This document shows, in pieces, positions 1 to 36,682 of a stretch of DNA of 36,682 nucleotides; within the stretch, counting starts at the first letter, position 1, and the number at the start of each line of letters is the position of its first letter. This stretch comes from a virus (lineage: Duplodnaviria; Heunggongvirae; Uroviricota; Caudoviricetes): the IMG/VR virus record IMGVR_UViG_2609459792_000013; one strand, given 5' to 3'. Position numbers and translations under genes: made by a program. The notes beneath the pieces are model-generated. The model was not told the origin of the DNA, ran no database searches, and worked only from the letters and a program-made list of their open reading frames with translations.

Positions 1-1053
1 TTACGGGGTAATGCCAACCGCTGCCGCCACTTTGTCGCCACTTGGCAGCGTTGCCAGAGGATTGAAACGGAGCGCCGTTTCCAGATGATCCGGTGCCAGA
101 TGTGCGTAACGCATAGTCATTTTTATATCGTGGTGTCCGAGAATTTTTTGTAAGGCCAGAATGTTTCCACCCGACATCATGAAGTGCGCCGCAAACGTAT
201 GGCGCAGAACGTGTGTGAGTTGACCGCGAGGGAGCACGATAGACGTTTTTTCCATCACGGATAAAAATTGAAAATAGCAGTCTGTGAAGAAATTGAACCC
301 ATCAAGCGCCATGATCTCTTCGTAAAGCTCTTTACTGATAGGGATGCTTCTGTTTTTCTTCCCCTTCGTTCTTACAAAGGTAATTCGGTATTTGGTCACC
401 TGTGAACGAGTAAGATTTACGGCTTCTCGCCAGCGTGCGCCTGTGCTTAAGCATATCTTAACTACCAGTGCCAGAATTGGGTCCTGACGTTTGCAATCAG
501 CCAGTAATTCAACAATCTGCTCATGGGTAAGCCATGCCATCTCTTTTTCTGCGATGGTGAATTTTCGCATGTTCTCCAGTGGGTTCGGATACGACCATTC
601 GCCCAGGCGGGATAGTTCGCTAAAAACACTACTTAGATAGCTTTGCTCCAGGTTAATGGTGACCGGGCTTGCTCCTTTCTTCCATTTCTCGCTGAAGTAG
701 ATCTCACCTGTCAGGCGTTTATCTCGATAGTGGGCAAACATTTTAGAGGTTAGATCAGTTGCAAGGGGATTGCCCAGAGCGTCAACCATCAGCAGCAATT
801 TGTCATAGACATGCTGCCCAGCTGTCAGTGATTTACCATGTAGTTTGAACCATAGCTCAACCACGTCTTTCAGTGTTCGACGATCCACTGATTCTCCCAG
901 CCAGGGCTTTGCTTCGGTTTCTTCCATCGTATGGCGCTCAAAAGCCAGAGCTTCGCCTTTGGTGGCGAATTGTTTACGCACACGACGCCCACTACGTCCG
1001 GCGGGGTAACATTCGCAAAGCCATTTTCCTGTGGTGAGTTTTCGTACTGCCAT
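1..1053 (-). CDS. int: Tyrosine-type site-specific integrase (P2 Int-like)
   Basis: Track ORF 1..1131; start trimmed to ATG at 1053 (MAVRKLTTGKW..., GGAGGG RBS 8 nt upstream), which aligns with my recollection of the P2 Int N-terminus. C-terminal HxxR and RYAHLAP tyrosine motif. Confidence 0.9.
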   Translation of the reverse strand: MAVRKLTTGKWLCECYPAGRSGRRVRKQFATKGEALAFERHTMEETEAKPWLGESVDRRTLKDVVELWFKLHGKSLTAGQHVYDKLLLMVDALGNPLATDLTSKMFAHYRDKRLTGEIYFSEKWKKGASPVTINLEQSYLSSVFSELSRLGEWSYPNPLENMRKFTIAEKEMAWLTHEQIVELLADCKRQDPILALVVKICLSTGARWREAVNLTRSQVTKYRITFVRTKGKKNRSIPISKELYEEIMALDGFNFFTDCYFQFLSVMEKTSIVLPRGQLTHVLRHTFAAHFMMSGGNILALQKILGHHDIKMTMRYAHLAPDHLETALRFNPLATLPSGDKVAAAVGITP

Positions 1054-1239
1054 AAAAAATGCCCTCCAATAGAGAGCATTTTTACTGTATATATAAACAG
1101 TGTCAATGTATGAAATCCTGCGACCATACATCTCACTGAAGCCATAATGAAGTTGGCTATTTTTTGCTATGTGAGTATGTGACTTTTGCGGTTAGCCTGC
1201 GGCTCATTGTTATATTAGGCGCAGATATAAAAGCAAAAT

Positions 1240-3418: not shown

Positions 3419-3485
3419 CCAACCAATGAAATTAATGGCGTAAACCCGCCGGGCATCCCTTTATCTAAATTCAGGAGAATTGATT

Positions 3486-3946: not shown

Positions 3947-4800
3947 GCACCATCCTGAAATGGGCGGGAAATAAAACTGCCATAATGTCCGAACTGAAAA
4001 AACATCTTCCTGCTGGCCCGCGACTGGTTGAACCTTTCGCGGGTTCCTGTGCTGTGATGATGGAGACGGATTATCCCAGCTATCTGGTTGCGGATATTAA
4101 TCCTGATTTAATCAACCTCTATAAAAAGGTTGCCGCTGATTGTGAATCGTTTATATCTCGCGCCAGAGTTTTATTTGAGATCGCAAACAGGGAGGTGGCT
4201 TATTACAACATAAGGCAGGAGTTTAATTACTCAACTGAAATTACTGATTTCATGAAAGCGGTATATTTCCTGTATCTCAATCGTCACGGTTACCGTGGTT
4301 TATGTCGCTATAACAAGAGCGGGCATTTCAACATTCCCTACGGTAATTATAAAAATCCGTATTTCCCTGAAAAAGAAATTCGCGCATTTGCAGAAAAGGC
4401 CCAGCGAGCAACGTTTATCTGCGCCAGCTTTGATGAAACGCTGGCGATGTTGAAGGCGGGGGATGTGGTGTATTGCGATCCGCCGTATGACGGTACGTTT
4501 TCCGGCTATCACACTGACGGCTTCACTGAAGATGACCAGTATCACCTGGCATCTGTTCTTGAACATCGGTCATCAGAAGGACATCCGGTCATTGTTTCTA
4601 ACAGTGACACATCCCTGATCCGTTCGCTGTATCGCAATTTTACTCACCACTACATCAAGGCAAAACGCAGCATCGGTGTGGCAGCTGGCGAGGGTAAATC
4701 AGCAACAGAAATCATTGCTGTTTCCGGGCCGCGCTGCTGGGTGGGATTTGATTATTCGCGTGGCGTGGATAGTTCTGCCGTGTACGGAGTACGTGCATGA
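3943..4800 (+). CDS. dam: DNA adenine methyltransferase (Dam-like, N6-adenine; probably GATC)
   Basis: ATG at 3943 ([11 protein letters not shown]). Motif [10 protein letters not shown] and motif IV DPPY; long collinear similarity to E. coli Dam as I recall it ([32 protein letters not shown]). Confidence 0.85.
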
Positions 4801-7211
4801 GTCATGCCGATATGAACAACTGCTGCGGCTTTAACGAAGCTGCCGCATCGTTCTCATGGAACAGCCCGAAAAAGGCCATTAACCCTTATCTGGACCCGGT
4901 GGAAGTTGCGCCGGTTTCTACGCTTTCAAACCTGATCACTCTGTATGCTGCCGATAACGAGCAGGAACAGCTGCGCCGTGAGGCGCTGAGTGATCAGGTC
5001 TGGGAGCGTTATTTCTTTAATGAATCCCGTGATCCTGTCCAGCGCGAAATGGAACAGGATAAGCTCATTAGTCGGGCAAAGCTGGCGCATGAGCAGCAGC
5101 GTTTTAATCCGGATATGGTCATTCTGGCGGACGTCAACGCCCAGCCTTCCCATATCAGCAAGCCGCTGATGCAACGTATTGAATACTTCAGCAGCCTGGG
5201 CAGGCCAAAGGCTTATTCCCGCTATTTACGTGAGACGATTAAGCCATGTTTGGAACGACTGGAGCATGTACGCGACAGTCAGCTATCTGCATCTTTTCGC
5301 TTTATGGCAAGCCATGAAGGGCTGGACGGCCTGCTGATCCTGCCTGAAATGAGTCAGGATCAGGTGAAACGCCTGTCCACCTTGGTAGCTGCGCATATGA
5401 GTATGTGCCTTGATGCCGCTTGTGGCGATTTGTATGCCACCGATGACGTTAAGCCAGAAGAAATCCGCAATACATGGGAAAGGGTGGCAGCGGAAACCCT
5501 GCGTCTGGATGTCATCCCGCCTGCGTTTGAGCAACTCCGTCGGAAAAGAAACCGCCGTAAACCCGTGCCCTATGAACTCATTCCGGGTTCGCTGGCGCGT
5601 ATGTTGTGCGCCGACTGGTGGTATCGGAAATTATGGAAGATGCGTTGCGAATGGCGGGAAGAGCAGTTGCGTGCAGTCTGCCTTGTCAGCAAAAAAGCAT
5701 CTCCTTATGTCAGCTATGAAGCCGTGATGCATAAACGTGAGCAGCGCCGTAAGTCGCTGGAGTTTTTCCGTTCTCATGAACTGGTGAACGAAGACGGCGA
5801 CACGCTGGACATGGAGGATGTGGTAAACGCCAGCAGCAGCAACCCAGCGCATCGCCGCAATGAGATGATGGCCTGTGTTAAAGGTCTGGAGCTTATCGCG
5901 GAAATGCGCGGTGACTGCGCCGTTTTCTACACCATCACCTGTCCGTCACGTTTCCATTCCACGCTAAACAACGGCAGGCCCAACCCAACCTGGACAAATG
6001 CGACGGTAAGACAAAGCAGTGATTATCTGGTCGGCATGTTTGCTGCATTTCGTAAGGCGATGCACAAAGCCGGATTGCGGTGGTATGGCGTGCGGGTGGC
6101 TGAGCCGCATCATGACGGTACAGTTCACTGGCACCTGTTGTGTTTTATGCGCAAAAAAGACCGCCGCACCATCACTGCATTACTGCGTAAGTTTGCCATC
6201 CGTGAAGACCGCGAGGAGCTGGGCAATAACACTGGGCCGCGCTTTAAGTCTGAGTTGATTAACCCGCGCAAAGGTACGCCAACAAGCTACATCGCGAAAT
6301 ACATCAGTAAGAACATTGACGGGCGTGGTCTGGCTGGCGAGATCAGCAAGGAAACGGGGAAATCCCTGCGTGATAATGCTGAATACGTTAATGCCTGGGC
6401 GTCTCTGCATCGTGTTCAGCAATTCCGCTTCTTTGGCATTCCGGGGCGTCAGGCTTACCGTGAACTGCGATTGCTGGCTGGTCAGGCGGCAAGGCAACAG
6501 GGGGACAAAAAAGCAGGTGCGCCGGTACTGGATAACCCGCGCCTTGATGCCATTCTGGCTGCTGCTGATGCTGGTTGTTTTGCCACCTACATCATGAAGC
6601 AGGGTGGCGTACTGGTTCCCCGCAAATATCACCTCATCAGAACTGCTTATGAAATCAACGAAGAGCCGACCGCCTATGGCGATCACGGCATTCGTATTTA
6701 TGGCATCTGGTCACCTATTGCAGAGGGCAAGATCTGCACTCATGCCGTGAAGTGGAAAATGGTTCGTAAGGCCGTTGACGTTCAGGAGGCGGCAGCCGAC
6801 CAGGGCGCTTGCGCCCCTTGGACTCGTGGCAATAACTGTCCCCTTGCTGAAAATTTGTACCAACAAGGGAAAGACAAATCAGCTGATGGAGATACCAGAA
6901 CGGATATCACCCGCATGGATGACAAGGAGTTGCACGATTACCTGCACAGTATGAGCAAAAAAGAGCGCCGGGAACTGGCAGCAAGGTTACGCCTGGTGAA
7001 ACCGAAACGGCGTAAAGACTACAAACAACGAATTACAGACCATCAGCGACTGCAGCTCGTGTATGAACTGAAGTCCAGGGGATTTGATGGCAGCGAGAAA
7101 GAGGTCGATTTACTGCTTCGCGGCGGCAGTATTCCGTCAGGAGCAGGCCTGCGTATCTTCTATCGGAACCAGCGTTTGCAGGAAGATGATAAGTGGCGAA
7201 ACCTGTATTAA
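4797..7211 (+). CDS. A: Rolling-circle replication initiator (P2 gpA-like)
   Basis: 804 aa; HUH-type motif [10 protein letters not shown] and Y-x3-Y active-site pair (YIAKY), as in P2 A. Start overlaps the Dam stop. Confidence 0.85.
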
Positions 7212-7303
7212 TTACGCGGGTTAACAATTCGTGCTCTTAATAATACCAGGCATATCAGGCTGATGAGCGTAAAAAAACGTTTTACATCAGTAAGATTATT
7301 ATA

Positions 7304-7323
7304 TACTGTAAATATAAACAGTG
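7304..7323 (+). promoter_or_regulatory. LexA (SOS) box overlapping a candidate promoter
   Basis: TACTGTAAATATAAACAGTG is a perfect CTGT-N8-ACAG with AT-rich spacer (CTGT 7306-7309, ACAG 7318-7321). -35 TTTACA (7281-7286) and, 17 bp later, -10 TACTGT (7304-7309) overlap it; AGGAGG RBS and ATG at 7364 follow. Confidence 0.65.
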
Positions 7324-7363
7324 GTTATGTATACAGTATTGCTTTGGTGTCATAGGAGGAAAG

Positions 7364-7552
7364 ATGCAGGACTATTTTTTGGAGTCTTTGAAGCTCCAGC
7401 GCATTGATTTTTTTCTTAAGCTTGTAGCGGCTAGTGAGTGTAGTGATGAAGAGAAGGGGCTGGCTCTGCAGTGGGTTTCAGAGCTGACTGATGAGTTGAT
7501 GGCGAAAATTCGTGCCCATGAATATAACCGTGTAATGGATCTTCCCGGTTAG
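7364..7552 (+). CDS. Small acidic protein (62 aa) under putative SOS control; Tum-like antirepressor position, function unknown
   Basis: Strong AGGAGG RBS; first gene after the LexA-box promoter; sits where 186 carries its LexA-controlled tum operon (A to cos). Confidence 0.6.
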   Translation: MQDYFLESLKLQRIDFFLKLVAASECSDEEKGLALQWVSELTDELMAKIRAHEYNRVMDLPG

Positions 7553-7563
7553 CAGCAGGGGCG

Positions 7564-7598
7564 TTGCTGGCGTGAGAACTAGATTCTCGCGTCAGCAA
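7564..7598 (+). other. 15-bp-stem hairpin between the 62-aa and 387-aa ORFs
   Basis: Arm 7564-7578 TTGCTGGCGTGAGAA pairs with arm 7584-7598 TTCTCGCGTCAGCAA (13 Watson-Crick + 2 G-U pairs), 5-nt loop; no following U-tract. Confidence 0.4.
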
Positions 7599-7722
7599 GG
7601 TCAACTAAGGATTGAAACAGAAAGCCCTTGAAAACAGTAGCAAGTTGCCTATTATCTACGCTGTATTTAATCGATGTCATTGGCTGTAATACCTTAAGTG
7701 ATATTGAAAGGCGGTGTGGGGA

Positions 7723-8883
7723 ATGGATCTGGCTAAAGTTGAAGAACGCGTCCGAAGAGTCATAGGGACAATGGAGTCTGCCGAGCTTGATGAATATTTT
7801 TGGGGTAAGCGCTCGGGTTTGGGAGACTCATTACCTCCGTATTATCTCGTTTATTTTCTTTTGGTAGATTTACTGAAATTTAAAAATCGTGGGGTTGATG
7901 AGAAGATTTCTTTTTCTATCCCAGTCCGGATTGATGGGACTGTCGTAATTATAGAACATCGTAAACTTGGTTTAGATATATTTATCAAGAGTGATGATGA
8001 TATAGAGCAAGCTAAAACTGTTTTGAGACATATTTGCGCAGGGGTTAAAGCTGCTACGAAATTTTTTGACTCGCTTGCAGACAATGCAGCAAAGACTTCA
8101 AATCTAAATGTTAATAACAATGCTAATTCTCTTTATGATAGGTTTTGCTATTTTTTAGAGCTATATAAACAGAAGCTTGATGAAGTTGCTGCTGGCCAAG
8201 AGTCTAAACTGGAAGTTGATAGTGAGTTTAAGTCTGATAATTTTTTCAGCCTGTTACAATCCACTTTTGAACAATCAAATAAGATAATTGAACTCCGAAG
8301 AGAGGCTATGTGGTTAGCAACGTCTGCAATTGAGTCATTTTTCAATTGGACCGAGCATGTTTTCATTCTTATTGCAATCTTGAAGGGTGAGATAAAAAAT
8401 GGGAATGATGTGGCTGATAAAGTTGGGAAAGAATGGGGGGAGAAATTCAAATTAGCCATTGATATTAACTCTTCCAGTCTAAAATCATTCTATGAACGTT
8501 TACTTATACTCAGAAAACAGGTGCGTAATTTTGTAGCCCATGGCGCCTTCGGTAAGGATGGGCAAGCATTGGAATTTCACTCAAGTGTAGGGGCTGTGCC
8601 ACTATTGCTGCCTCATCGAGAAAATAAAGAACGTTTCAAGTTTGGAAATGGTGTACATTTTTTGGCACCTGAAGCAATGCAATTAATTAACGATTTTCTT
8701 GAAAATTTGTGGCAGGGAGAACTGTCCCCAGCAAAAATTTATATTGAATCTGGATGTCCTTTAATACTATCTTACGTAACTAATGGAACCTATGCGGAGG
8801 CGATGAAATCAGAAAGGAATATGGACTTATTGGTTAATTACTTAACTCGTGAGATGGATAATGCCGCAAACATGGATTGGTAA
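7723..8883 (+). CDS. Cargo protein (387 aa), unknown function; candidate HEPN-like nuclease (R-N-x3-H motif)
   Basis: Long AT-rich ORF (ATG 7723; track start 7714 is a GTG) in the P2 tin/old slot. Motif LRKQVRNFVAHG matches the HEPN Rx4-6H signature; no Walker A motif seen. Confidence 0.75.
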   Translation: MDLAKVEERVRRVIGTMESAELDEYFWGKRSGLGDSLPPYYLVYFLLVDLLKFKNRGVDEKISFSIPVRIDGTVVIIEHRKLGLDIFIKSDDDIEQAKTVLRHICAGVKAATKFFDSLADNAAKTSNLNVNNNANSLYDRFCYFLELYKQKLDEVAAGQESKLEVDSEFKSDNFFSLLQSTFEQSNKIIELRREAMWLATSAIESFFNWTEHVFILIAILKGEIKNGNDVADKVGKEWGEKFKLAIDINSSSLKSFYERLLILRKQVRNFVAHGAFGKDGQALEFHSSVGAVPLLLPHRENKERFKFGNGVHFLAPEAMQLINDFLENLWQGELSPAKIYIESGCPLILSYVTNGTYAEAMKSERNMDLLVNYLTREMDNAANMDW

Positions 8884-9083
8884 ACTCTAGGTGCGGGTTA
8901 CAAACACACAAAAAATCTTCCTGAGTTAGGTGTTATCCCAACCCAAGGCTGTGTCAGGAAAACTTCATATGGCGCATGAGATCGCATGATAGTATGACGA
9001 TCGTTTTCGCTGATGCCAGCCTGAGCTGGCGGGCTGTTGCATATGTCATGCAGGCGCATGAAAACCACTGCATAAAGCGGGTA

Positions 9084-9102
9084 GGCGTGGCGGGGATACG
9101 AG
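9084..9102 (+). other. Putative cos (cohesive-end) site
   Basis: GGCGTGGCGGGGATACGAG: the first 13 nt match the 186/P2 cos 19-mer as I recall it (GGCGTGGCGGGGAAAGCAT / GGCGAGGCGGGGAAAGCAC). Lies in a GC-rich non-coding spacer upstream of the Q-P packaging genes. Confidence 0.5.
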
Positions 9103-9208
9103 CGCGCGGGATGACATAACAGATTGAATTGAAAAATATTGACTAAATGTAAAATGCGAAGGATATTTAGCCCCTCTATGAAGTTTTAGATATGGAAAAT
9201 GATAGGTT

Positions 9209-9499
9209 ATGAAAACGATATATAGCTATGATTACCAATACTTGCCTAAAGGGTCCACAAGACCAATTGATGACGGAGATATAGTAGGCTGTTCGTCAGA
9301 AGAAAATCCTTTTCTTCTACTTCCCAATGTAGGTGATTTTGTCTCTATATGTAATGACAATAGTCGGTCTTCGTTTAGTGGTATTGTTAAAACTAGATAT
9401 TTCACTTATACGAGAATAAGTGAGGAGTGCGTACAATGTTCAATTAATATTGTAGTTGCAGAATCTGATGTAGATTGGGGTACTCTTATTAAAGAATAA
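9209..9499 (+). CDS. Cargo protein (96 aa), cytoplasmic, unknown function
   Basis: AT-rich ORF between cos and Q; candidate promoter upstream (TTGACT at 9140-9145); no recognisable motif. Confidence 0.6.
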   Translation: MKTIYSYDYQYLPKGSTRPIDDGDIVGCSSEENPFLLLPNVGDFVSICNDNSRSSFSGIVKTRYFTYTRISEECVQCSINIVVAESDVDWGTLIKE

Positions 9500-9554
9500 T
9501 ATGGGGCGTCTGCGTAAGTGGGCGCTATTAAAATAAAATGGAATCTTGTAATGT

Positions 9555-10241
9555 ATGGTTAAATTTAATAATAACTTTGATTTTCCATTGGTAACAATAC
9601 TGACGGTGTTGCTATTTATATTGGCATATTTTTTTAAACTTGGTGAGGCCGTTTATTTTGGTTATCCAGCAATACTTATATCATTAGATTTAACGAGTGT
9701 TGCGAATATTTCTTTAAAGCTTTTTTTCTATTTTGGTAGTATTGTTATAGGTGTTTTTAATTTTATTTTGAATGATGGTGCGATTAAACTTAATAAAATT
9801 AAGTATGTTCTTTGGATTTTTATTGCCATAACAATATTTTCAGTTTTTTTAAGTTTTAAGAGGGGGGAGAAAGACTTAGTTAACTATCTTAATGGTGGTC
9901 TTTTTGGTATTTGTTCATGGTTGGTGGTAATGTCGTTGTTCAAAACATTTGAACGAAGTGGTGATTTGATTAATATAGATTTCGTATATGCCATATTAAC
10001 GGTTTTCTTTATGTCAGTTACTAGTTTTCTTGGAGGGATTAATTATCATAATCAGTTTGCATCTGTTCTATGGAAAACCTTGGATGGAAAAATAGTAGTT
10101 GGAGAATATAACGGCAGTTTTGTTTTAAAGAAATGCGTAGATGGCAAAGGGGTTTTTAGCTTTAGAGAGGTAAATGGTAGCGAATTTGTTGAGGTTGTAA
10201 ATTATGTGGAAGGGAAGTTTAATCCAAGGTGCAATAGATAA
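9555..10241 (+). CDS. Cargo membrane protein (228 aa), about five TM helices plus a roughly 60-aa C-terminal soluble domain
   Basis: Hydrophobic stretches LVTILTVLLFILAYFF, ISLKLFFYFGSIVIGVFNFIL, YVLWIFIAITIFSVFLSF, LFGICSWLVVMSLF, FVYAILTVFFMSVTSFLGGI; very AT-rich; ends 25 bp before the convergent Q stop. Confidence 0.7.
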   Translation: MVKFNNNFDFPLVTILTVLLFILAYFFKLGEAVYFGYPAILISLDLTSVANISLKLFFYFGSIVIGVFNFILNDGAIKLNKIKYVLWIFIAITIFSVFLSFKRGEKDLVNYLNGGLFGICSWLVVMSLFKTFERSGDLINIDFVYAILTVFFMSVTSFLGGINYHNQFASVLWKTLDGKIVVGEYNGSFVLKKCVDGKGVFSFREVNGSEFVEVVNYVEGKFNPRCNR

Positions 10242-10266
10242 AGGTGCCAGGGCACCTTTCAAATAA

Positions 10267-11298
10267 TTATTCAAGTTTGTAGGCGTCAAAACTGATAACA
10301 GTTTTACCTAACCATATATTCAATTCTTCAAATCTTTTTTGCAATGATGTTAGTTCATTTCTTACAAAAACATTACTCGCCTTCTCCACATCCCCAAACC
10401 CTCCAACATTATTAGGCATAATCCCCATCATTTGCGGCGGCACGCGGTGCGCAGCCATCATGTCATCCCGGCTCACGTTCTTGATATTCAAAAATTCATC
10501 CTTTGCCGCGACTTCTGACAGAGGAATAATCTGAAGCCCGTCCTTTTTGCCGTTAGGCGAGTACATAAACAGGTTGCGGAAGTTGCCTGGACCTTTGGCG
10601 CTTTTCATCGCGTTGCGGAGGTTGTTCACATCTTCCTGGTTCTGCGCGGCGTCGGTCATATACATGATGAAGCCAGCATGACTGCCGTTAATGTAATACT
10701 TTCGACGGAACAGCGTGGCGGACTCATTGAGCAGGGCGGACGGAATGGCAGAAAGATAGCCGGGCAAGCCGTAGATCTCCTGGTTAATGTCCGGTTCCAT
10801 CAGATGAAAAATGCTGCCTTTCGTGAACTGATATGGCTGGGTTGTCATACCGTATTGCACAAACCAGTAGGTATCCAAGTCTAACCCGCGTCGGGTGTAT
10901 TTTGCCAGCGCAGGCTCAAGGGCGATAACTTCACCGAAGCGGTTCGTGCGTTTCTCCAAGTAGGCGTTACCAAAAACCAAATAGTCCTGCACAAAACGCG
11001 AAAAAGCCTGCTGGCTGAGCAGCGGGTGAGGGATGTAGGTGCTGGTCAAAATATTGCATTTCACCGCAATCGGTGAGCTGTGATGCACGGCGGCGCGGAA
11101 GGTTCGTGCCAGCCCGTCAAAGCTGACGGGCGGCTCATACCAGCGATCCATCTGTACGCATTCCACATAGTCCAGCAGTTCGCGGCGGTCCAGAACAGGA
11201 ACGGGATCACCGAAGCTGAATGCTTCGGCTGAAGTCTGGCTTTTATGCTGGTTCTGGTTCGTCGACGCAGCGCGGTTCTTCTTACTCTTTCCCATCAA
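10267..11298 (-). CDS. Q: Portal protein (P2 gpQ-like)
   Basis: 343 aa, recalled P2 Q similarity; operon with P on the minus strand, start overlapping the P stop. Confidence 0.85.
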   Translation of the reverse strand: MMGKSKKNRAASTNQNQHKSQTSAEAFSFGDPVPVLDRRELLDYVECVQMDRWYEPPVSFDGLARTFRAAVHHSSPIAVKCNILTSTYIPHPLLSQQAFSRFVQDYLVFGNAYLEKRTNRFGEVIALEPALAKYTRRGLDLDTYWFVQYGMTTQPYQFTKGSIFHLMEPDINQEIYGLPGYLSAIPSALLNESATLFRRKYYINGSHAGFIMYMTDAAQNQEDVNNLRNAMKSAKGPGNFRNLFMYSPNGKKDGLQIIPLSEVAAKDEFLNIKNVSRDDMMAAHRVPPQMMGIMPNNVGGFGDVEKASNVFVRNELTSLQKRFEELNIWLGKTVISFDAYKLE

Positions 11299-13061
11299 AA
11301 AATCTCCACAATATTGCTGGCATTGGCGGACTCGCCCTGCAGCGGTTCGTTAAACAGTGCGTGCATTGTTGCCCAGGCCAGATCGGCATGGCTGGCTTCT
11401 TCGCTGCGGCTGGCTTCATAGGTCGGGCGGTTGCCGCTGGCGGTGGTGGCGCGACGGATTGCCATGAATGACTGCGCAATGTCGGTGTGTCCGGCGTCAA
11501 ATTCCAGGCGGCGGTGACTGATAATGTCGTAGGCCTTGAGTACCAGGGCGTTTTTAACGTTGGGGTTGTAGACAAACTCCCGGACGGCAGGAAAAAACGC
11601 TTTCACGTTCTCGTAAACCCCGTGACCGACGCCGGTCGAGTCGATGCCGATATAGGTCACGTTATACTGTTCGGTCAGTTTTTTGATGGCGTCAGCCTGG
11701 GCGCGGAAGTCCATTCCGCGCCACTGGTGACGCTCAAGAATGCGGAACTTACCGCCCTGCACGGCTGGCGGTGCCACCACCACGCATCCGGCGCTGTCGC
11801 CGTTCTGCGTACCTTTTGCCGGGTCATAACCGATCCACACTTCGCGCCAGCCAAACGGGCGCAGGGCCAGTGCATGAAAGTCGGTCCAGACTTCCCAGCT
11901 GTCCACCATGCACGCCTGCAGCTCGCTGAGCGGGAACACGGACGCGAGATCGTCCACGAATTCACACATCAGCAGGTTCTGGTATTCGTCCGGGCTGTAT
12001 TCCATGCGCAACTGGTCAAGGTCGAACAGGTTACAGCCGCCGCGCACCGCATCTTCCACGGTGACTATCTGGCGGTATTGCCCGTCTGCACACAGCAGGC
12101 CTGGAGCCAGATTGCTGTGGGACAGGTCGATGTCCACCTTGTCGGCTTTATTGCGCCCACGGTTGAATAGCGCACCGGACCAGAACGGATAAGCACTGTG
12201 TGTCAGGCTGGATGGCGTGGAAAAATAGGTTTGTCGCCATTTTTTGTGAATAGCCATACCGGAAGCCACTTTGCGCAGCTCCTGGAATTTCGGGATCCAG
12301 AAATATTCATCCAGATACAGGTTGCCGTGGTAACTCTGGGCCGTGCGGGCATTGGTGCCGAGGAAATACAGTGTGGCCCCGTTGGGAAGCACCATCGGAT
12401 CGCCTTTCAGCTCCACTTCCACTTCTTTGGCGAAGTCGATGATGTACTGCTTAAAGACGTGGGCCTGTGCCTTGCTGGCGGAAAGGAAAATCTGGTTACG
12501 TCCGGTAAGCAGAGCGTCAATCAGGGCTTCACGGGCAAAGTAAAAGGTCGCGCCGATCTGGCGTGACTTCAGCAGGTTGCGGATGCGGTTGGTTTTTCCG
12601 GCTTCCCACCAGTGGCGCTGGTAGTTGAACATGGAGGAATGGAAGATTTCTTCCAGCTTCTCAATCTGCTCATCGGTGAAAACATTCTTTTCCGGCTGAC
12701 GGCGCGGGCCTTTGTTGCGGTTGGCGACGTTAGGGTTTAAGTCGGCTTCGTTGCCGCCATTGTTAAACTTGCCGATCCGCGCGTGGCGTTCCGACTGGCG
12801 CGCCAGCAGGTCAATCTCTTTGAAATCTTTCCCTTCTTTGTGCTCCTTCATAATGAGCTGGCAGTAGCGTGCGGCGGTGGTGAGCTGCATCTGATCCAGC
12901 GGCCCATAGTCACCCCACTTGTCGCGTTTCTTCCAGCTGTGAACGGTTGCAACTTTCTCGCCCAGCATTTCAGCAATGCGGGCTACACGGTATCCCTGAA
13001 AGTACAGCAGCATGGCCTGCCGACGGGGATCGAGATCTGCGGGTGTCAGTGTGGTGTTCAT
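11295..13061 (-). CDS. P: Terminase large (ATPase) subunit (P2 gpP-like)
   Basis: 588 aa in the position and orientation of P2 P; an alternative start at 13013 is possible. Confidence 0.85.
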   Translation of the reverse strand: MNTTLTPADLDPRRQAMLLYFQGYRVARIAEMLGEKVATVHSWKKRDKWGDYGPLDQMQLTTAARYCQLIMKEHKEGKDFKEIDLLARQSERHARIGKFNNGGNEADLNPNVANRNKGPRRQPEKNVFTDEQIEKLEEIFHSSMFNYQRHWWEAGKTNRIRNLLKSRQIGATFYFAREALIDALLTGRNQIFLSASKAQAHVFKQYIIDFAKEVEVELKGDPMVLPNGATLYFLGTNARTAQSYHGNLYLDEYFWIPKFQELRKVASGMAIHKKWRQTYFSTPSSLTHSAYPFWSGALFNRGRNKADKVDIDLSHSNLAPGLLCADGQYRQIVTVEDAVRGGCNLFDLDQLRMEYSPDEYQNLLMCEFVDDLASVFPLSELQACMVDSWEVWTDFHALALRPFGWREVWIGYDPAKGTQNGDSAGCVVVAPPAVQGGKFRILERHQWRGMDFRAQADAIKKLTEQYNVTYIGIDSTGVGHGVYENVKAFFPAVREFVYNPNVKNALVLKAYDIISHRRLEFDAGHTDIAQSFMAIRRATTASGNRPTYEASRSEEASHADLAWATMHALFNEPLQGESANASNIVEIF

Positions 13062-13203: not shown

Positions 13204-14037
13204 ATGACAGTGAAAGCAAAGCGTTTTCGCATCGGGGTGGAAGGTGCCACCACCGACGGACGCGAAATCCAGCGTGAATGGCTGGAACAGATGGCAGCCA
13301 GCTACAACCCGGCGGTGTACACCGCGCTGATTAACCTTGAGCACATCAAGTCTTATCTGCCGGACAGCACCTTTAACCGCTACGGCAAGGTGACGGCGCT
13401 GTTTGCTGAAGAAATCACGGAAGGCCCGCTGGCGGGCAAGATGGCACTGTATGCCGACGTTGAGCCAACGGAGTCCCTGGTGGAACTGGTGAAAAAAGGC
13501 CAGAAATTATTCACCTCTATGGAAGTCAGCCCGAAGTTTGCAGATACGGGCAAAGCCTACCTGGTCGGCCTGGCTGCTACAGATGACCCTGCCAGTCTGG
13601 GCACTGAAATGCTGACATTCAGCGCCAGTGCAGCCCATAACCCGCTGGCAAACCGCAAGCAGAATCCTGCCAATCTTTTTACCGCTGCAGAGGAAACGGT
13701 GATCGAACTGGAAGAAGTCCAGGACGAAAAACCATCCCTGTTTGCCCGTGTCACGGCGCTGTTCACCAAAAAAGAGCAATCCGATGATGCCCGGTTCTCT
13801 GATGTGCATAAGGCCGTGGAGCTGGTCGCCACTGAGCAGCAAAACCTGAGTGCGCGCACCGAAAAATCCCTGTCTGAACAGGAAGAACGCCTGTCTGAGC
13901 TGGAGACAGCCCTGCAGGCACAGCTGACCGCCTTTAACGAACTGGTGGACAAGTTGAGCCATGAAGACAGCCGCCAGGACTACCGCCAGCGTGCAACAGG
14001 CGGTAACGCCCCCGCTGACACTCTGACCAATTGCTGA
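13204..14037 (+). CDS. O: Capsid scaffolding protein (gpO-like)
   Basis: 277 aa, first gene of the rightward late operon, acidic coiled-coil C-terminal half. Confidence 0.85.
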   Translation: MTVKAKRFRIGVEGATTDGREIQREWLEQMAASYNPAVYTALINLEHIKSYLPDSTFNRYGKVTALFAEEITEGPLAGKMALYADVEPTESLVELVKKGQKLFTSMEVSPKFADTGKAYLVGLAATDDPASLGTEMLTFSASAAHNPLANRKQNPANLFTAAEETVIELEEVQDEKPSLFARVTALFTKKEQSDDARFSDVHKAVELVATEQQNLSARTEKSLSEQEERLSELETALQAQLTAFNELVDKLSHEDSRQDYRQRATGGNAPADTLTNC

Positions 14038-15115: not shown

Positions 15116-15766
15116 ATGAGCCTGAGTCCCGCACGGCAGCATCGCCTGCGCGTTCAGGCTGAACAGGCCGCCCGTGAGGGCGGCAGCGTTCGCCACGCGT
15201 CGGGCTATGACCTGATGCTGCTGCAACTGGCAGAAGACCGCCGCCGTCTCAAGGGCGTTCAGTCCACGGTCAAAAAAGCGGAAATAAAGGTGGAGCTGCT
15301 GCCGAAATATGCCGCCTGGGCGGAGGGCGTCCTGGCTGCCGGAGGCGCTCAACAGGATGACGTGCTGATGTATGTGATGCTGTGGCGCATTGATGCCGGA
15401 GATTATGCCGGGGCGCTGGAGATCGGGCGTCATGCCCTGCGTCATGGCTGGGTGATGCCGCTGGGTAACCGCAACGTGCAGACCGTGCTGGCAGAGGAAA
15501 TGGCAGATGCAGCGCAGAGCGCAATGCTTGCCGCCACCGGCTTTGATGCCGATCTGTTGCTGCAGACGCTGGAGCTGACAGACGGTCTGGATATGCCGGA
15601 CCAGTCACGGGCGCGTCTGCATAAAGCGATTGGCGCTGTCCTGAGTGAAAGCAATCCGGCTTCCGCCCTTAATCATCTCAACCATGCGTTACAGCTCGAT
15701 CCCCGCTGTGGCGTGAAAAAAGACAAACAGCAGCTGGAGCGCAGACTGCGCAATGACAGCCGCTGA
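15116..15766 (+). CDS. M: Terminase small (endonuclease) subunit (gpM-like)
   Basis: 216 aa; GAQDDVLMYVMLWRIDAGDYAGALEI matches recalled P2 M. Confidence 0.85.
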   Translation: MSLSPARQHRLRVQAEQAAREGGSVRHASGYDLMLLQLAEDRRRLKGVQSTVKKAEIKVELLPKYAAWAEGVLAAGGAQQDDVLMYVMLWRIDAGDYAGALEIGRHALRHGWVMPLGNRNVQTVLAEEMADAAQSAMLAATGFDADLLLQTLELTDGLDMPDQSRARLHKAIGAVLSESNPASALNHLNHALQLDPRCGVKKDKQQLERRLRNDSR

Positions 15767-18656: not shown

Positions 18657-20408
18657 CTATTGGTTGAATATGAAGCTGATAATATTTTCAGGAGTGAGCT
18701 CTATGTTTTTTTTATTAAGTTTTTGAATGTACATTTTATATTTCATTTCAACGTTTCGGAAGCCTTGCGCAACAGAAAGTATTTCTACAGGATGAGATGA
18801 AAGTTTTATTAAGGAGTTAATGACTGTATCTAGGTAGATGTGAGCATGTTCAACTAAAACATTTGTTTTTGATGGGGTTTTTCCAGTGTGAACTATCAAG
18901 TTTCTAGTTCTATATATTCTCCTAATTTGCCAGTTGATTCTTTCTGCATGATTTTTAAGTGCCTGATACATAGTATCAGTTGAGGAAATTAAATTGCTAA
19001 TATATTCAAATCTCTCTTTCAATAACGGAAATTGTGATAGTTCTATCTTAAACTGATTGATGCTAGGGGCATGTTCTTGCGAAGCAACAAGAATTACAAA
19101 TGATTTGGCTGCATCGCTATCTCCAATTAGTCTTAGAAGTGACATGGTTCGAGGATGATTCCATCGTTGTAAGTCTTTTATAAGATTCCTTACTAGGTCT
19201 TCAATATAATTCAGGTTTAAAAATGGTGTTAATGAATTAACGATATGTTCTATCGTGGATTGTTCTTCTTTTTTTGATTCGTCGGGGATGAGTGATTCAA
19301 TAGCAATCCATAAATTTAAAAGCTGATTTTCTACAGCATTTGTCTGTAGTGCCATTGAATGTAATTGTACACTTCTTATGAATTTATTGAAAGAATCCTT
19401 GCGCATTCTGAAATTATTCATGAATTGTTCGAGTCTTCTGCTTGCGTGTTCCTGAACCAGATCCTTGCAGCGGTGCATTGGGTTTATGCTGCTTCTTATA
19501 TTGATTTTTTCACCATTTTCACTAACTACAATGTTCTCTGCAGACCATGATGCTTCTTGCTTATGATGATAGAGAGAAAGCAAAGTTGATGCGAGCTTTA
19601 AGTTTCTTTCAGCTACCCTTCTAGCCGTGAATGGATCAAGTGCTTTAACATGCTTAACTAAAATAGTTCGTTGTTCATGATTATCGAAGAAATCTGTTTC
19701 ATTAATATTTTCGGGGGTTTCAAGAACAACCTCAATTTCTAATTGTGATAAGCATGGAGTAATATAACTAAAAGATTTGTCAGCATTGAAATAAACTGAA
19801 TATTCTTGTGTCTCTGAGGGGATGTTCTCTAGGAATGTAATAATCTCTTCATTTGAACTGATCTCTCGTTCTCTTTGGAAGAAATGTTTTTTTAGACTTT
19901 CCATCAAATATTCTTGACTTAATCCTTTTGATATTAGATGGGTAATCAACAGTCTTGTAAACTTTCGAATTTTATTTGGGTTGTATTCTGAAGTTATTGT
20001 AGAGCAAAGTTCACTGATGAGTTTGCTTTCATAATTACCAACATTAAGTTGAACTCTCAGTAATTCAAGAGTTATTTTTAGATTTTTATTTCCTAACTGA
20101 TTGTTTTGGAGTTGATCTAAAAATGAACCTAAAGGGTTTTTTAGAAGACTGATTGCGATGTCATCATTCTTAATATTTTTAGTTAATTCGTCAATGACGT
20201 GGGATATATGTGCGGGGCTTATGTTGCCTTTTTCTATATCATCGATTGTTGATATTGCTTCTATACATAAACTTGGAGTGTTCATTATAGAAGGTTTATA
20301 TGTACTATGGGTGTAATCAAAGAGAAGTTCCTCCATTAACTCGGTGAAATAAATAAGCGCAGTGCATTGTTCAATATGATTCCAGTTGTGTAGTCTTCTA
20401 AATTTCAT
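18657..20408 (-). CDS. Cargo protein (583 aa) antisense to the late operon in the S-V moron slot; candidate HEPN-like abortive-infection protein
   Basis: Very AT-rich ORF; ATG at 20408 (MKFRRLHNWNH...). The track TTG start at 20528 would overlap gpV and is rejected. C-terminal motif IRRIYRTRNLIVHTGK matches R-N-x3-H-x-G; no Walker A motif. Confidence 0.8.
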   Translation of the reverse strand: MKFRRLHNWNHIEQCTALIYFTELMEELLFDYTHSTYKPSIMNTPSLCIEAISTIDDIEKGNISPAHISHVIDELTKNIKNDDIAISLLKNPLGSFLDQLQNNQLGNKNLKITLELLRVQLNVGNYESKLISELCSTITSEYNPNKIRKFTRLLITHLISKGLSQEYLMESLKKHFFQREREISSNEEIITFLENIPSETQEYSVYFNADKSFSYITPCLSQLEIEVVLETPENINETDFFDNHEQRTILVKHVKALDPFTARRVAERNLKLASTLLSLYHHKQEASWSAENIVVSENGEKINIRSSINPMHRCKDLVQEHASRRLEQFMNNFRMRKDSFNKFIRSVQLHSMALQTNAVENQLLNLWIAIESLIPDESKKEEQSTIEHIVNSLTPFLNLNYIEDLVRNLIKDLQRWNHPRTMSLLRLIGDSDAAKSFVILVASQEHAPSINQFKIELSQFPLLKERFEYISNLISSTDTMYQALKNHAERINWQIRRIYRTRNLIVHTGKTPSKTNVLVEHAHIYLDTVINSLIKLSSHPVEILSVAQGFRNVEMKYKMYIQKLNKKNIELTPENIISFIFNQ

Positions 20409-20452
20409 ATTAATACCTTGTTTTGTGAAGCTTGAATTTACCTTTAGCGCAT

Positions 20453-20470
20453 TGTTTGTTGCTTCATACA
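20453..20470. promoter_or_regulatory. TGT-N12-ACA dyad between the cargo gene and V (late-promoter activator site candidate)
   Basis: TGTTTGTTGCTTCATACA, with flanking extended symmetry TGTTTG...CAAACA. Centre is 55.5 bp from the V ATG (20517) and 53.5 bp from the cargo ATG (20408). Confidence 0.45.
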
Positions 20471-20516
20471 AACATGGTTTGTTTGTGATCTCAAGTGTTT
20501 GATTAAGAATTTGAGA

Positions 20517-21095
20517 ATGAACGTACAACTCACGGAAATCATGCGCCTTATCACCAATCTGATCCGCACAGGGGTAGTCACCGAAGTGGACCGGGAAAAC
20601 TGGCTTTGCAGGGTGAAAACGGGCGAGCTTGAAACCAACTGGATCAGCTGGCTGACGCTACGTGCCGGAAATGCCCGGACATGGTGGCGACCATCGGAAG
20701 GTGAGCAGGTGGTGCTGCTGAGTCTGGGCGGCAATCTGGAGACCGCCTTTGCGCTGCCCGCTGTCTATTCGAATCAGTTCGCACCACCGTCGACGTCGGC
20801 GGACGCCTGCGTGACAGAACATCCTGACGGTGGCTGGTTTGAATACGAACCCGCCACCGGGCGCTGGTATGTCAGGGGCATCAAATCAATGGTCATTGAG
20901 GCCGCTGACAACATCACCCTGAAAACCAGTGAGTTTGTACTGGAGGCTGACCGCACGCGCATTAACAGTGAAGTGGTGATCAATGGTGGAGTTACCCAGG
21001 GCGGCGGAGCGATGAGTTCTAACGGGATCGTGGTTGATGCGCATCAGCATACTGGCGTCCTGAAAGGCGGCGATACAACCGGAGGCCCGGTATGA
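20517..21095 (+). CDS. V: Baseplate spike protein (gpV-like)
   Basis: N-terminus MNVQLTEIMRLITNLIRTGVVTEVD resembles recalled P2 V; an alternative start at 20541 is possible. Confidence 0.8.
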   Translation: MNVQLTEIMRLITNLIRTGVVTEVDRENWLCRVKTGELETNWISWLTLRAGNARTWWRPSEGEQVVLLSLGGNLETAFALPAVYSNQFAPPSTSADACVTEHPDGGWFEYEPATGRWYVRGIKSMVIEAADNITLKTSEFVLEADRTRINSEVVINGGVTQGGGAMSSNGIVVDAHQHTGVLKGGDTTGGPV

Positions 21096-33608: not shown

Positions 33609-33827
33609 ATGATGATTTGCCCACTGTGTGGAAGTGCCGCCCATACTCGCAGCAGTTTTCAGGTATCTTCATTGACCAAAGAGCGTTACAACCAGTGCCA
33701 GAACATTAACTGCAGCCATACTTTTGTTACCCATGAAACTTTTGTTCGTTCGATTGCAACGCCAAAAGAGTCAAATCCGGTTCAGCCGCATCCAATGAAA
33801 TCAGGACAGGTGGCGCTCTCTCTTTGA
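33609..33827 (+). CDS. ogr: Late-gene transcriptional activator, zinc finger (P2 Ogr / 186 B-like)
   Basis: ATG at 33609 gives MMICPLCGSAAHTR...QCQNINCSHTF (C-x2-C...C-x4-C), resembling recalled P2 Ogr; last phage gene before the host junction. Confidence 0.8.
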   Translation: MMICPLCGSAAHTRSSFQVSSLTKERYNQCQNINCSHTFVTHETFVRSIATPKESNPVQPHPMKSGQVALSL

Positions 33828-33907
33828 CGCTGCCGCCATTTTGTCGCCATCGTTAAAAAACAGTGTTTCTAACATCATGATTTTAAACAGCTTAAATTTC
33901 AGGCAAC

Positions 33908-33950
33908 AAAAAACCCATCAACCTTGAACCGAAATGGCGGGGTTGATGGG
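33908..33950 (-). terminator. Rho-independent terminator candidate for the minus strand (downstream of ybjL)
   Basis: Perfect 10-bp stem CCCATCAACC / GGTTGATGGG (33914-33923 and 33941-33950) with a 17-nt loop, followed on the minus strand by a run of six T (plus-strand AAAAAA at 33908-33913). Confidence 0.5.
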
Positions 33951-34062
33951 CTCCACAAAATGGGGACATCAAAGAAAAGCAGTGGCACTAATTAAGACTG
34001 ATGCCCTGCGGAAAAGTTCTGCGGTTGTGCAAAAAAATTTCATTTTCAGGGCAACTTCAGTT

Positions 34063-35748
34063 TTATCCTAATCCTGGCCATACCATGACGATGATTGTCC
34101 CTGCCAGCGTCAGCAGGACGTTGGCGATTGCGTAGGTGCCCGCATAGCCCAGCGCAGGGATGTTACTGCGAGCTGTATCACTGATGATCTCCATTGCCGG
34201 CGCGCAGGTGCGTGCGCCCATCATTGCGCCGAACAACAGTGCGCGGTTCATTCGCAATACATAAGCACCGAACAAGAAACAGATAACCACGGGCACAAGA
34301 CTGACAATTAATCCGGCAATCAACATCTGACCGCCAATCGCGCCCAGGCCGTTATTAATACCGCTACCGGCGCTCAGACCAACGCCTGCCATAAACACCA
34401 TCAAGCCGAACTCTTTCACCATGCTTAATGCACCTTGCGGAATGTAACCGAAGGTCGGGTGGTTAGCACGCATAAAGCCCAGCATAATTCCGGCGAATAA
34501 CAACCCGGCAGCGTTCCCCATGCCGAAACTGAATGTGCTGAACTGGAAGGTGATCATCCCGATCATCAGCCCAATAACAAAGAAGGCGCAAAATGCCAGC
34601 AGGTCAGTGACCTGGCTGTGAATCGAGATAAAGCCGATGCGATCGGCGATGGTTTTTACGCGACGGGCATCACCGCTGACTTGTAAAACGTCACCTTTGT
34701 TAAGCACGACGTTGTCATCTATCGGCATCTCAATCTGGCTACGAATGACGCGGTTAAGGAAGCAACCGTGATCGGTCAACTTCAGTTGTGCGAGACGTTT
34801 ACCTACAGCGTTATGGTTTTTAACGACCACTTCTTCAGTGACGATACGCATGTCGAGAAGGTCACGATCGAAAACTTCTTTACCGTTACGGAAGCTGGGA
34901 TCGAGTCGGGCATGGGCGTCGGGATAGCCTACCAACGCTATTTCATCGCCCATTTGTAGCACGGCATCACCGTCTGGATTTGCCAGAATCCCGTTACGTC
35001 GAATACGTTCAATGTAGCAGCCGGTTTGTCGATAAATACCCAGTTCACGCAGATTTTTGCCGTCGGTCCAGGCCACCAGCTCCGGGCCGACGCGATAGGC
35101 GCGGATCACCGGTAAATAAACCTTACGGTTGGCATCAGTGTCCAGGCCACGTTCGCGGGCGATTTGCTGGGCGCTGGTCTGTAAGTCCTGATGCTGCAAT
35201 TTCGGCAAGTAACGCGCACCAACAATCAAACTCACCAGACCGATTAAATAGGTTAAGGCATACCCGAGGCTCAGATTATCCAGTGCCAGTGAGAGCTGCC
35301 TGCTTTCCATGCCGAAATGACGCAGTGTATCGCCAGCACCGACCAGAACCGGTGTCGACGTCATAGAGCCTGCTAACATACCGGCCGTCAGGCCAATATC
35401 CCAGCCAAACAGCTTACCTAACCCTAAGGCGATCACCAGCGCACTGCCAACCATCACCAGTGCTAACATTAGGTAATTTTTCCCATCGCGAAAAAAAATG
35501 GAAAAAAAGTTCGGTCCGGCTTCGACCCCGACGCAGAAAATAAACAGCATAAAGCCAAGATTAAGCGCATCGGTGTTAATGCTGAAATGTTGTTGGCCTA
35601 ATAACAGCGATACGACTAAAACGCCAATGGAATTACCCAGTTGGATCGAACCAAGTCGTAACTTTCCGAGACATAGCCCAAGCGCGAGGACCACAAATAA
35701 TAACAGAATGTAATTCCCATTTAACAATTCGGCGACGTTTATATTCAC
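34063..35748 (-). CDS. ybjL: Putative transport protein YbjL-like (AAE-family membrane transporter), host gene
   Basis: 561 aa, multi-TM with a central soluble TrkA-C-like region; length and sequence match my recollection of E. coli YbjL. Confidence 0.8.
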
Positions 35749-36017
35749 GGAGGCTAACTTCTTGTTTACTAGTAAGCTGTTGAAAGAAATGGTAATTTAC
35801 GATAATGTTTTTTACCAGAATTCAGGGCGCAGATTCATTCAGCGCACCTAAACGATAGTAAAGTAACAATATATTTTACTAGTGTAATCACATTAGGTAT
35901 CAACGGCTATATGAATTGCGTTGGCCTATATTAGCATGGAATGCGAAGCGGCTTTATCTTACTGAACGCCACACTGGCGAAAAATGTGTTCGATAGACGC
36001 AGTGTCAGGAGGAACGA

Positions 36018-36395
36018 GTGAAACATAAACAACGTTGGGCGGGGGCAATCTGCTGTTTTGTCCTCTTCATTGTGGTGTGCCTTTTTCTGGCGACGCACAT
36101 GAAAGGCGCTTTTCGGGCTGCCGGGCATCCTGAAATCGGCTTGCTATTTTTCATTCTTCCTGGAGCAGTTGCCAGTTTCTTTTCACAGCGTAGAGAAGTC
36201 CTGAAACCTCTATTTGGCGCAATGCTGGCGGCACCCTGTTCAATGCTCATTATGCGGCTGTTTTTTTCACCGACGCGCTCATTCTGGCAAGAGCTGGCAT
36301 GGTTACTAAGCGCGGTGTTCTGGTGTGCGCTGGGGGCACTGTGTTTCTTATTTATCAGTAGTTTGTTTAAACCACAGCACAGAAAAAATCAGTAA
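36018..36395 (+). CDS. ybjM: Inner membrane protein YbjM-like, host gene
   Basis: 125 aa, GTG start with GGAGG RBS; four hydrophobic helices; adjacent to grxA as in E. coli. Confidence 0.75.
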   Translation: MKHKQRWAGAICCFVLFIVVCLFLATHMKGAFRAAGHPEIGLLFFILPGAVASFFSQRREVLKPLFGAMLAAPCSMLIMRLFFSPTRSFWQELAWLLSAVFWCALGALCFLFISSLFKPQHRKNQ

Positions 36396-36424
36396 AGCCC
36401 TCAACGCGAGGGCTTGTCAGACGA

Positions 36425-36682
36425 TCAGGCGTCCAGATTTTCTTTCACCCATGCAGCAAAATCGGTATAGCCGCCGATATGTTGCTGATCGACAAAAATC
36501 TGCGGCACGGTTTCTACGGGTTTACCTGCCTTTTGTTGTAGATCTTCTTTAGTGATCCCTTCCGCACGAATATCTACATACTGATACTGAAAATCATCGC
36601 GTTCATTGCTCAATTTCTCAGCCAGATCTTTTGCACGCACACAGTAAGGGCAACCCGAACGACCAAAAATAACGGTTTGCAT
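36425..36682 (-). CDS. grxA: Glutaredoxin 1
   Basis: 85 aa with the CPYC active site (MQTVIFGRSGCPYCVRAK...); window ends at its start codon. Confidence 0.9.
   Translation of the reverse strand: MQTVIFGRSGCPYCVRAKDLAEKLSNERDDFQYQYVDIRAEGITKEDLQQKAGKPVETVPQIFVDQQHIGGYTDFAAWVKENLDA

Follow-up and report, generated by a model that had tools for sequence, protein, structure and literature searches.

The stretch of DNA analyzed here (36,682 nucleotides, referred to below as the window) is a P2-like prophage of Escherichia coli, of the Fels-2/P2 type (Peduoviridae), and E. coli chromosomes carry the sequence of its right end (33700-36682) with 100% identity at ybjL-ybjM-grxA. Pfam models identify the gpA replication endonuclease (4797-7211), the Q portal protein (10267-11298, minus strand; Phage_portal), the P large terminase (11295-13061, minus strand; Terminase_5, Terminase_6N, and Terminase_6C, i.e., PF06056, PF03237, and PF17289), the O scaffold (13204-14037), and a gpM-type small terminase (15116-15766, plus strand; PF05944, Phage_term_smal, 2.2e-40), which is the presumed reader of the cos packaging signal. 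Q, P, O, and M all give full-length family matches, and elsewhere in the late region the ORFs run without interruption. A cognate terminase pair (small gpM and large gpP) is encoded by the same element as the candidate cos, and the order gpA, accessory region, cos, Q, P is the layout of P2 and 186.

The accessory region holds two AT-rich blocks on either side of a GC-rich one. The block at 8968-9108 has a GC content of 56.7%, against 39.1% in the cargo to its left and 32.1% in that to its right, which bears out the description of a GC-rich spacer in the initial annotation. The left slot (7212-8967, plus strand) contains a perfect LexA box, CTGTAAATATAAACAG (7306-7321), which precedes a conserved 62-amino-acid ORF (phrog_698; 7364-7552), followed by replaceable cargo at 7541-8967. 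The main gene of this block, an ORF of 386/389 amino acids (7714/7723-8883), has no family match in Pfam, PADLOC, or NCBIfam; relatives carry DinI at its position. The left block had been called an SOS module, and the LexA box makes that name apt for its regulation but not for its gene content, as no DinI or Tum gene is present. A second perfect LexA-box-like palindrome, CTGTATATATAAACAG, lies at 1085-1100, near the 5' end of the integrase ORF (1-1131, minus strand), and could indicate SOS control at the int end of the prophage.

The right slot (9109-10266, plus strand) encodes a small nonmembrane protein of 96 amino acids (9209-9499; phrog_12676) and a protein of 228 amino acids with at least four separate hydrophobic segments (9555-10241; phrog_35408), both belonging to families of unknown function. 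Its earlier designation as a membrane module fits the 228-amino-acid protein and does not extend to the 96-amino-acid one. None of the four cargo ORFs of the two slots has a Pfam, PADLOC, or NCBIfam match or a recognized defense domain, PHROGs returned only families of unknown function, and comparison of the cargo with plasmid DNA gave one weak partial match. The right cargo pair (96 plus 228 amino acids) was found in 33 blocks of an assembly collection, and it occupies the cos-Q slot in both contexts shown (L134 and L135). The same prophage has a third accessory slot, an AT-rich insertion (∼33% GC) in the late region at 18.6 to 20.5 kb, where 18657-20528 (minus strand) encodes a 623-amino-acid protein that matches the PADLOC ApeA defense model (2.9e-12).

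Within the GC-rich block, positions 9084-9102 (plus strand; 73.7% GC) read GGCGTGGCGGGGATACGAG, the predicted 19-nt cohesive end (cosN). This 19-mer occurs once in the window, even with three mismatches permitted, and shuffled sequences averaged 0.01 matches; the family pattern GGCGWGGCGGGG-N7-YGCGCG likewise has the 9084-9102 site as its sole match in the window. The record of phage 186 opens with GGCGTGGCGGGGAAAGCAT, annotated as the cohesive end, the top strand being cut at its 5' end and the bottom strand at its 3' end, and the record of P2 opens with GGCGAGGCGGGGAAAGCAC, annotated as cosL, a sequence shared by P4. The window 19-mer fits the P2-family form, GGCG(A/T)GGCGGGG plus 7 nt, and is identical to the 186 end at 15 of 19 positions and to the P2 end at 14 of 19. 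Its first 13 nt had been equated with those of the 186 cohesive end, and they do match the 186 record exactly; the mismatches with 186 are at positions 14, 16, 17, and 19. Because six positions on the 3' side depart from P2 or 186, the position of the right nick is extrapolated. The site had also been placed upstream of the Q-P packaging genes, and by Pfam assignment it does sit between gpA and the divergent Q and P.

The same 19-mer, with the surrounding block, is present in several named phages. The SEN8 genome announcement states a cos site, ggcgtggcggggatacgag, that is identical to the window 19-mer (PMC5427200), and the SEN8 record stops exactly at the base before it. The record of Cartapus (prophage 4 of E. 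coli LF82) begins 32 nt upstream of the 19-mer, and its bases 1 to 59 are labeled “putative cos site, homologous to the cos of P2 phage”; encapsidated Cartapus genomes have been detected by quantitative PCR (PMC9928086). In both SEN8 and Cartapus, cos was called by annotation or homology. Fels-2 and plaque-forming Yersinia phages (MLG42) also have the 19-mer and its flanks. A scan of one genome per species found the 19-mer in ∼50 stretches, mostly from Enterobacterales, nearly all with the adjoining core and CGCGCG, and a scan of IMG/VR for the exact 19-mer gave 120 loci; 0 of these 120, and no locus spanning a whole contig, starts or stops at the 19-mer. In a literature search by sequence string and keyword, the variant ending in ATACGAG was called at annotation level only (SEN8), and PhageTerm mapping was found only for a P2-type end.

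Other occurrences of the 19-mer are of a different kind. Exact copies in three unrelated metagenome-assembled genomes were rejected as cos sites, the flanks being absent and ∼4 chance matches being expected in 596 Gb. Five contigs of the betaproteobacterium Chitinimonas sp. BJB300 and three of C. taiwanensis carry the exact 19-mer followed by CGCGCGC, with a flank identity of only 60 to 76%, which suggests that a distant host harbors several P2-like elements sharing one cohesive end. One IMG/VR metagenome contig has two inverted 19-mers 3.2 kb apart (3447-3465, minus strand, and 6704-6722, plus strand), which could be an assembly artifact at genome ends or two adjacent elements. No P4-like satellite with this cos variant was found among the fetched loci by tblastn with P4 Psu as the query.

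Conservation around the 19-mer defines an island at 8968-9108 (plus strand), delimited by a BLAST block in 73 phage records and by a per-position profile of 124 comparison loci oriented on the 19-mer. The share of the most frequent base averaged 0.8 to 1.0 from −125 to +25 and fell within a few bases, on both sides, to a background of ∼0.35. The conserved region is markedly asymmetric: it extends ∼125 bp leftward from the cut but just 6 to 7 bp rightward, the latter being CGCGCG (9103-9108, plus strand), after which conservation ends and the right cargo begins. No block other than 8968-9108 is common to the window and its relatives in the interval between the two cargo slots.

Cos regions of P2, 186, and P4 had been proposed as the comparison by which a cos site here should be judged, and when they were aligned, the match carried on, ungapped, into the conserved flanks. 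In this MAFFT alignment of the window, Fels-2, and Yersinia MLG42 with the rebuilt circular junctions of P2, 186, P4, and Cartapus, 50 columns are invariant, each keeping a constant distance from the ends of P2, 186, and P4, which have been defined experimentally. They include GCAT at −110, −100, and −28, AAAACC at −23 to −18, AAG-GGG at −9 to −3, 15 of the 19 cohesive-end positions, and GCGCG at +21 to +25. The proposal of a cos at 9084-9102 is thus supported, at the level of sequence, by the P2/186/P4 flank alignment and by the SEN8 annotation.

The invariant columns outline a proximal core at 9055-9109 (plus strand) that consists of TGCATKAAAACC...AAAGYGGG, the 19-mer, and YGCGCG. Its flanks, TGCAT(G/T)AAAACC...AAAG(C/T)GGG on the left and (C/T)GCGCG on the right, are present at fixed spacing, and the whole spans 55 bp, from about −29 to +26. 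A 55-bp cos core was described by Ziermann and Calendar (1990), according to the passage of PMC5694545 that cites their work, and we infer that 9055-9109 corresponds to it, the exact coordinates being our own placement. Candidate terminase recognition repeats form a cluster that spans 8974-9060, with GCATG at 8974, 8984, and 9056 (plus strand) and CATGC at 9047. These four motifs in 141 bp compare with an expectation of 0.25 (Poisson P = 1.3e-4), and no other 141-bp stretch of the window is richer in them. The island also contains a hairpin (9013-9042, plus strand), which in the clade consensus resembles a terminator (−23.4 kcal/mol; z = −4.5; followed by UUUU) and in the window is weakened (−14.7 kcal/mol; z = −1.0). 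A comparable hairpin is found in P4, and none is found in P2.

This copy of the island belongs to the Fels-2/SEN8-type variant, with the exact 19-mer, CGCGCG, and an island that starts at −116, and it has several peculiarities. The distal 9 bp, which carry GTGCATG at −125 to −117 in relatives, are replaced by left-cargo sequence, and the distal repeat, kept in 91 to 94% of loci, is absent from the window (8959-8967). At −2 (9082) the window has T, a base seen in 2 of 124 loci, where 98% of loci and P2, 186, and P4 have C; the G at −48 (9036) is found in 0 of the 124 other loci. Overall, the island is 82% identical to the consensus, the 11th lowest value among 122, while the 19-mer, CGCGCG, and 51 of the 55 core positions agree with it. 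When the island was examined for an internal recombination breakpoint, its right half was found to have private substitutions not common to L135, a contig with the same right cargo.

An identical junction between left cargo and island, without the distal repeat, is found in E. coli L725, whose left cargo is that of the window; 7200-9108 is also matched at 98.6 to 98.8% by nine additional complete E. coli genomes. The divergent junction is a lineage trait and not a sequencing error. A 10-kb stretch identical to the window is also on record in other assemblies. The diverged island, the lost repeat, the changes at −2 and −48, and the weak hairpin mean, on sequence grounds, that the packaging efficiency of this copy could be reduced.

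The two cargo slots vary in content between conserved anchors, even among close relatives, and they vary separately. In comparison with relatives (L135, L006, and Fels-2 for the left side), the left slot is bounded by breakpoints at 7540 and 8968, and the right slot by breakpoints at 9108 and ∼10302. Of 5,426 complete E. coli genomes searched with 7200-10300, 1,102 matched the left side and none matched to the right of 9108; the matches listed break off at 9107 to 9109 (the 9108/9109 boundary), and none of them enters the right cargo. Among the loci in which gpA or Q could be located, the left slot (84 loci) is 0.36 to 3.7 kb long and falls into 34 types by clustering. The right slot falls into 68 types in 90 loci; it is empty in 10 of them, at 147 to 182 bp, a length like that between cos and the portal gene in P2 and 186, and 0.5 to 3.5 kb long in the other 80. 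Genes found in the cos-flanking slots of relatives include those for AIPR, STAS-like, and DinI proteins.

Combinations of left and right cargo make the separate variation explicit. One left type occurs with nine different right types, and three right types each occur with two left types. Contig L135 (ERR1623172) has the right cargo of the window and the downstream DNA at 99.6% identity, joined to another left cargo (DinI plus a 203-amino-acid ORF), whereas E. coli L725 has the left cargo of the window and another right cargo (hypothetical, STAS-like, and hypothetical proteins). The arrangement of L725 is that of locus L005. The suggestion that the cargo occupies two independent moron slots is upheld by this independent assortment; as a matter of simple geometry, each end of the linear virion DNA would carry one of the two slots.

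The surroundings of the island also contain an 11-nt perfect inverted repeat, AAAACTTCATA and TATGAAGTTTT, at 8959-8969 and 9177-9187. This pair and a second one (8931-8944 and 9108-9121) were considered as the ends of a mobile cassette and rejected, as their arms lie in modules that occur separately (L005 and L135). The 11-nt repeat around the island is probably coincidental, because its arms belong to cargo modules found separately in other genomes.

We consider it very probable, from sequence comparison, that this Fels-2/P2-type (Peduoviridae) E. coli prophage has its cos packaging site at 8968-9108. By homology, the gpM/gpP terminase would recognize the island of ∼150 bp. Most of the recognition sequence, namely, the GCATG repeats and the TGCATGAAAACC...AAAGCGGG core, would lie to the left of the cut, with only ∼6 to 7 bp (CGCGCG) to the right; since conservation is asymmetric in this way, it suggests that the future right end of the virion DNA carries the recognition elements. 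Nicks are predicted in the top strand at 9083|9084 (before G9084) and in the bottom strand at 9102|9103 (after G9102), which would leave 19-nt 5' cohesive ends of sequence GGCGTGGCGGGGATACGAG, and the unit genome would be packaged. Virion DNA would then start at 9084, with the 96- and 228-amino-acid genes in its first 1.2 kb; its other end would be at 9102, the last ∼1.8 kb containing the LexA-controlled left cargo. We infer the exact nicks, the binding of terminase to the GCATG repeats, and the packaging proficiency of this copy. Apart from the island, no sequence between gpA/orf62 and Q is constrained, and it is therefore a homology anchor between two separately exchangeable cassettes.

The peculiarities of this copy bear on whether the site is still in use. 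It might be a true but decaying cos homologue, an impaired packaging signal at which few or no virion ends are made, as could be argued from its consensus identity of 82%, which ranks 11th from the bottom among 122, the replaced distal GTGCATG, a hairpin of −14.7 rather than −23.4 kcal/mol, the C-to-T change beside the nick at −2 (2 of 124 loci), and a G at −48 that no other locus has. Against this, the 19-mer, CGCGCG, and 51 of 55 core positions are those of the consensus, P2 itself lacks the hairpin, Cartapus has the same C at −29 and is packaged, and the junction without the distal repeat recurs in E. coli L725, with nine more genomes at 98.6 to 98.8% over 7200-9108 and an identical 10-kb stretch in other assemblies. 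Together with full-length Q, P, O, and M and uninterrupted late-region ORFs, this makes decay improbable. A related doubt concerns the register, as the cohesive ends might differ from the P2/186 19-mer in length or position, for example, through a displaced right nick. The 19-mer is unlike that of 186 at positions 14, 16, 17, and 19, and no literature on end mapping of the ATACGAG variant was found, but the spacing of AAG-GGG, GGCG-GGCGGGGA, and GCGCG is the same as in P2, 186, and P4, without gaps, and a P2-type phage analyzed with PhageTerm again has 19-nt 5' ends (PMC10321612); we regard a different register as very unlikely.

Two further explanations concern the role of the block between the cargoes. 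That it is mainly a transcriptional insulator or terminator between cargo operons, its cos resemblance being incidental, might be thought from the strong terminator-like hairpin and T run of the clade consensus. The hairpin, however, accounts for just ∼30 of the 141 bp, P2 does not have it, and in the window it is weak; the best-conserved part is instead the 55-bp core around the 19-mer, for which the chance expectation is 0.01, so that little credence is left to this explanation, which the flank alignment effectively refutes. Alternatively, the gpA-gpQ hotspot may be two functionally different slots at opposite ends of the packaged DNA, with exchange driven by terminase-cut cos ends. The left slot would then be LexA controlled and lie at the right virion end, the right slot, far more diverse and with its own promoters, would lie at the left virion end, and exchange of this kind would have left the window with its atypical island (T at −2 and no distal repeat), as a scar or a specificity variant. 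We think this extended scheme unlikely. The reading that we prefer remains that of a P2-family cos site of the Fels-2 type.

Earlier literature already describes the cos variant, the cosL-Q slot, and the gpA-gpQ hotspot. A passage of PMC5694545, citing Dodd and Egan 1996 and Nakayama 1999, describes the cosL-Q interval of P2-like phages as taking up foreign genes, and such a slot is noted for φCTX, 186, and φRSY1; P2 old and tin are on the other side of cos, at the right end. Rousset et al. (2022), in their treatment of the gpA-gpQ hotspot, speculate that cohesive ends are recombination substrates, and the description of a single hotspot recurs in a passage of a 2026 survey. The present analysis makes a modest addition, namely, the limits of the island (−125 to +25) and the independent assortment of its two sides, both quantified, and leaves the current understanding of P2-family packaging unchanged. 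Correct placement of cos fixes the virion map of the prophage, and the gpA-gpQ defense hotspot becomes two cassettes with an essential packaging signal of ∼150 bp between them. This matters for delimiting accessory or defense candidates, as genes on one side of cos should be scored apart from those on the other. The island may also be useful for the design of P2/P4-type cosmids with Fels-2-type helpers; a cosmid transduction assay has been done for P2/P4 (PMC9942202).

Among known systems, the cos of lambda (cosQ-cosN-cosB) resembles the window site in general plan, with a nick site and an asymmetric recognition region of repeated motifs, of which the small terminase is presumed to be the reader. 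There is no sequence relationship, and the ends of lambda are 12 nt rather than 19 nt long. In lambda, cosB is at the left end, whereas the extended conserved region of the window is on the side of the right virion end. Coliphage 186 (GGCGTGGCGGGGAAAGCAT) and P2/P4 (GGCGAGGCGGGGAAAGCAC) share with the window a GC-rich cohesive end of 19 nt, homologous gpM and gpP, and the GCAT repeats, AAAACC, AAG-GGG, and GCGCG at identical spacing. They differ by four (186) or five (P2/P4) changes in the 19 nt, concentrated at positions 14 to 19, and, in P2 and 186, by a cos-to-Q interval of ∼165 to 175 bp that holds only the portal-gene terminator (Q/W from 187/196), where the window has 1.16 kb of cargo.

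SEN8, Fels-2, Cartapus, RE-2010, and Yersinia phage vB_YpM_MLG42 (the Felsduovirus/Elveevirus group) have the identical 19-mer GGCGTGGCGGGGATACGAG. In the SEN8/Fels-2/Cartapus group, the island is 84 to 88% identical over 8968-9108 and likewise lies between gpA-side accessory genes and Q, whereas the window is without the distal GTGCATG and has a weaker hairpin, the rare bases at −2 and −48, and other cargo on both sides. The cos-flanking hotspots of P2-like phages are likewise characterized by variable AT-rich cargo with many alternative contents, for which conserved gpA/orf62, the cos island, and Q form the boundaries. The cargo of the window is without recognized defense domains, whereas relatives have defense genes such as that for AIPR, and where recent surveys treat one gpA-gpQ hotspot “adjacent to cos,” the window and its relatives have two slots split by the island.
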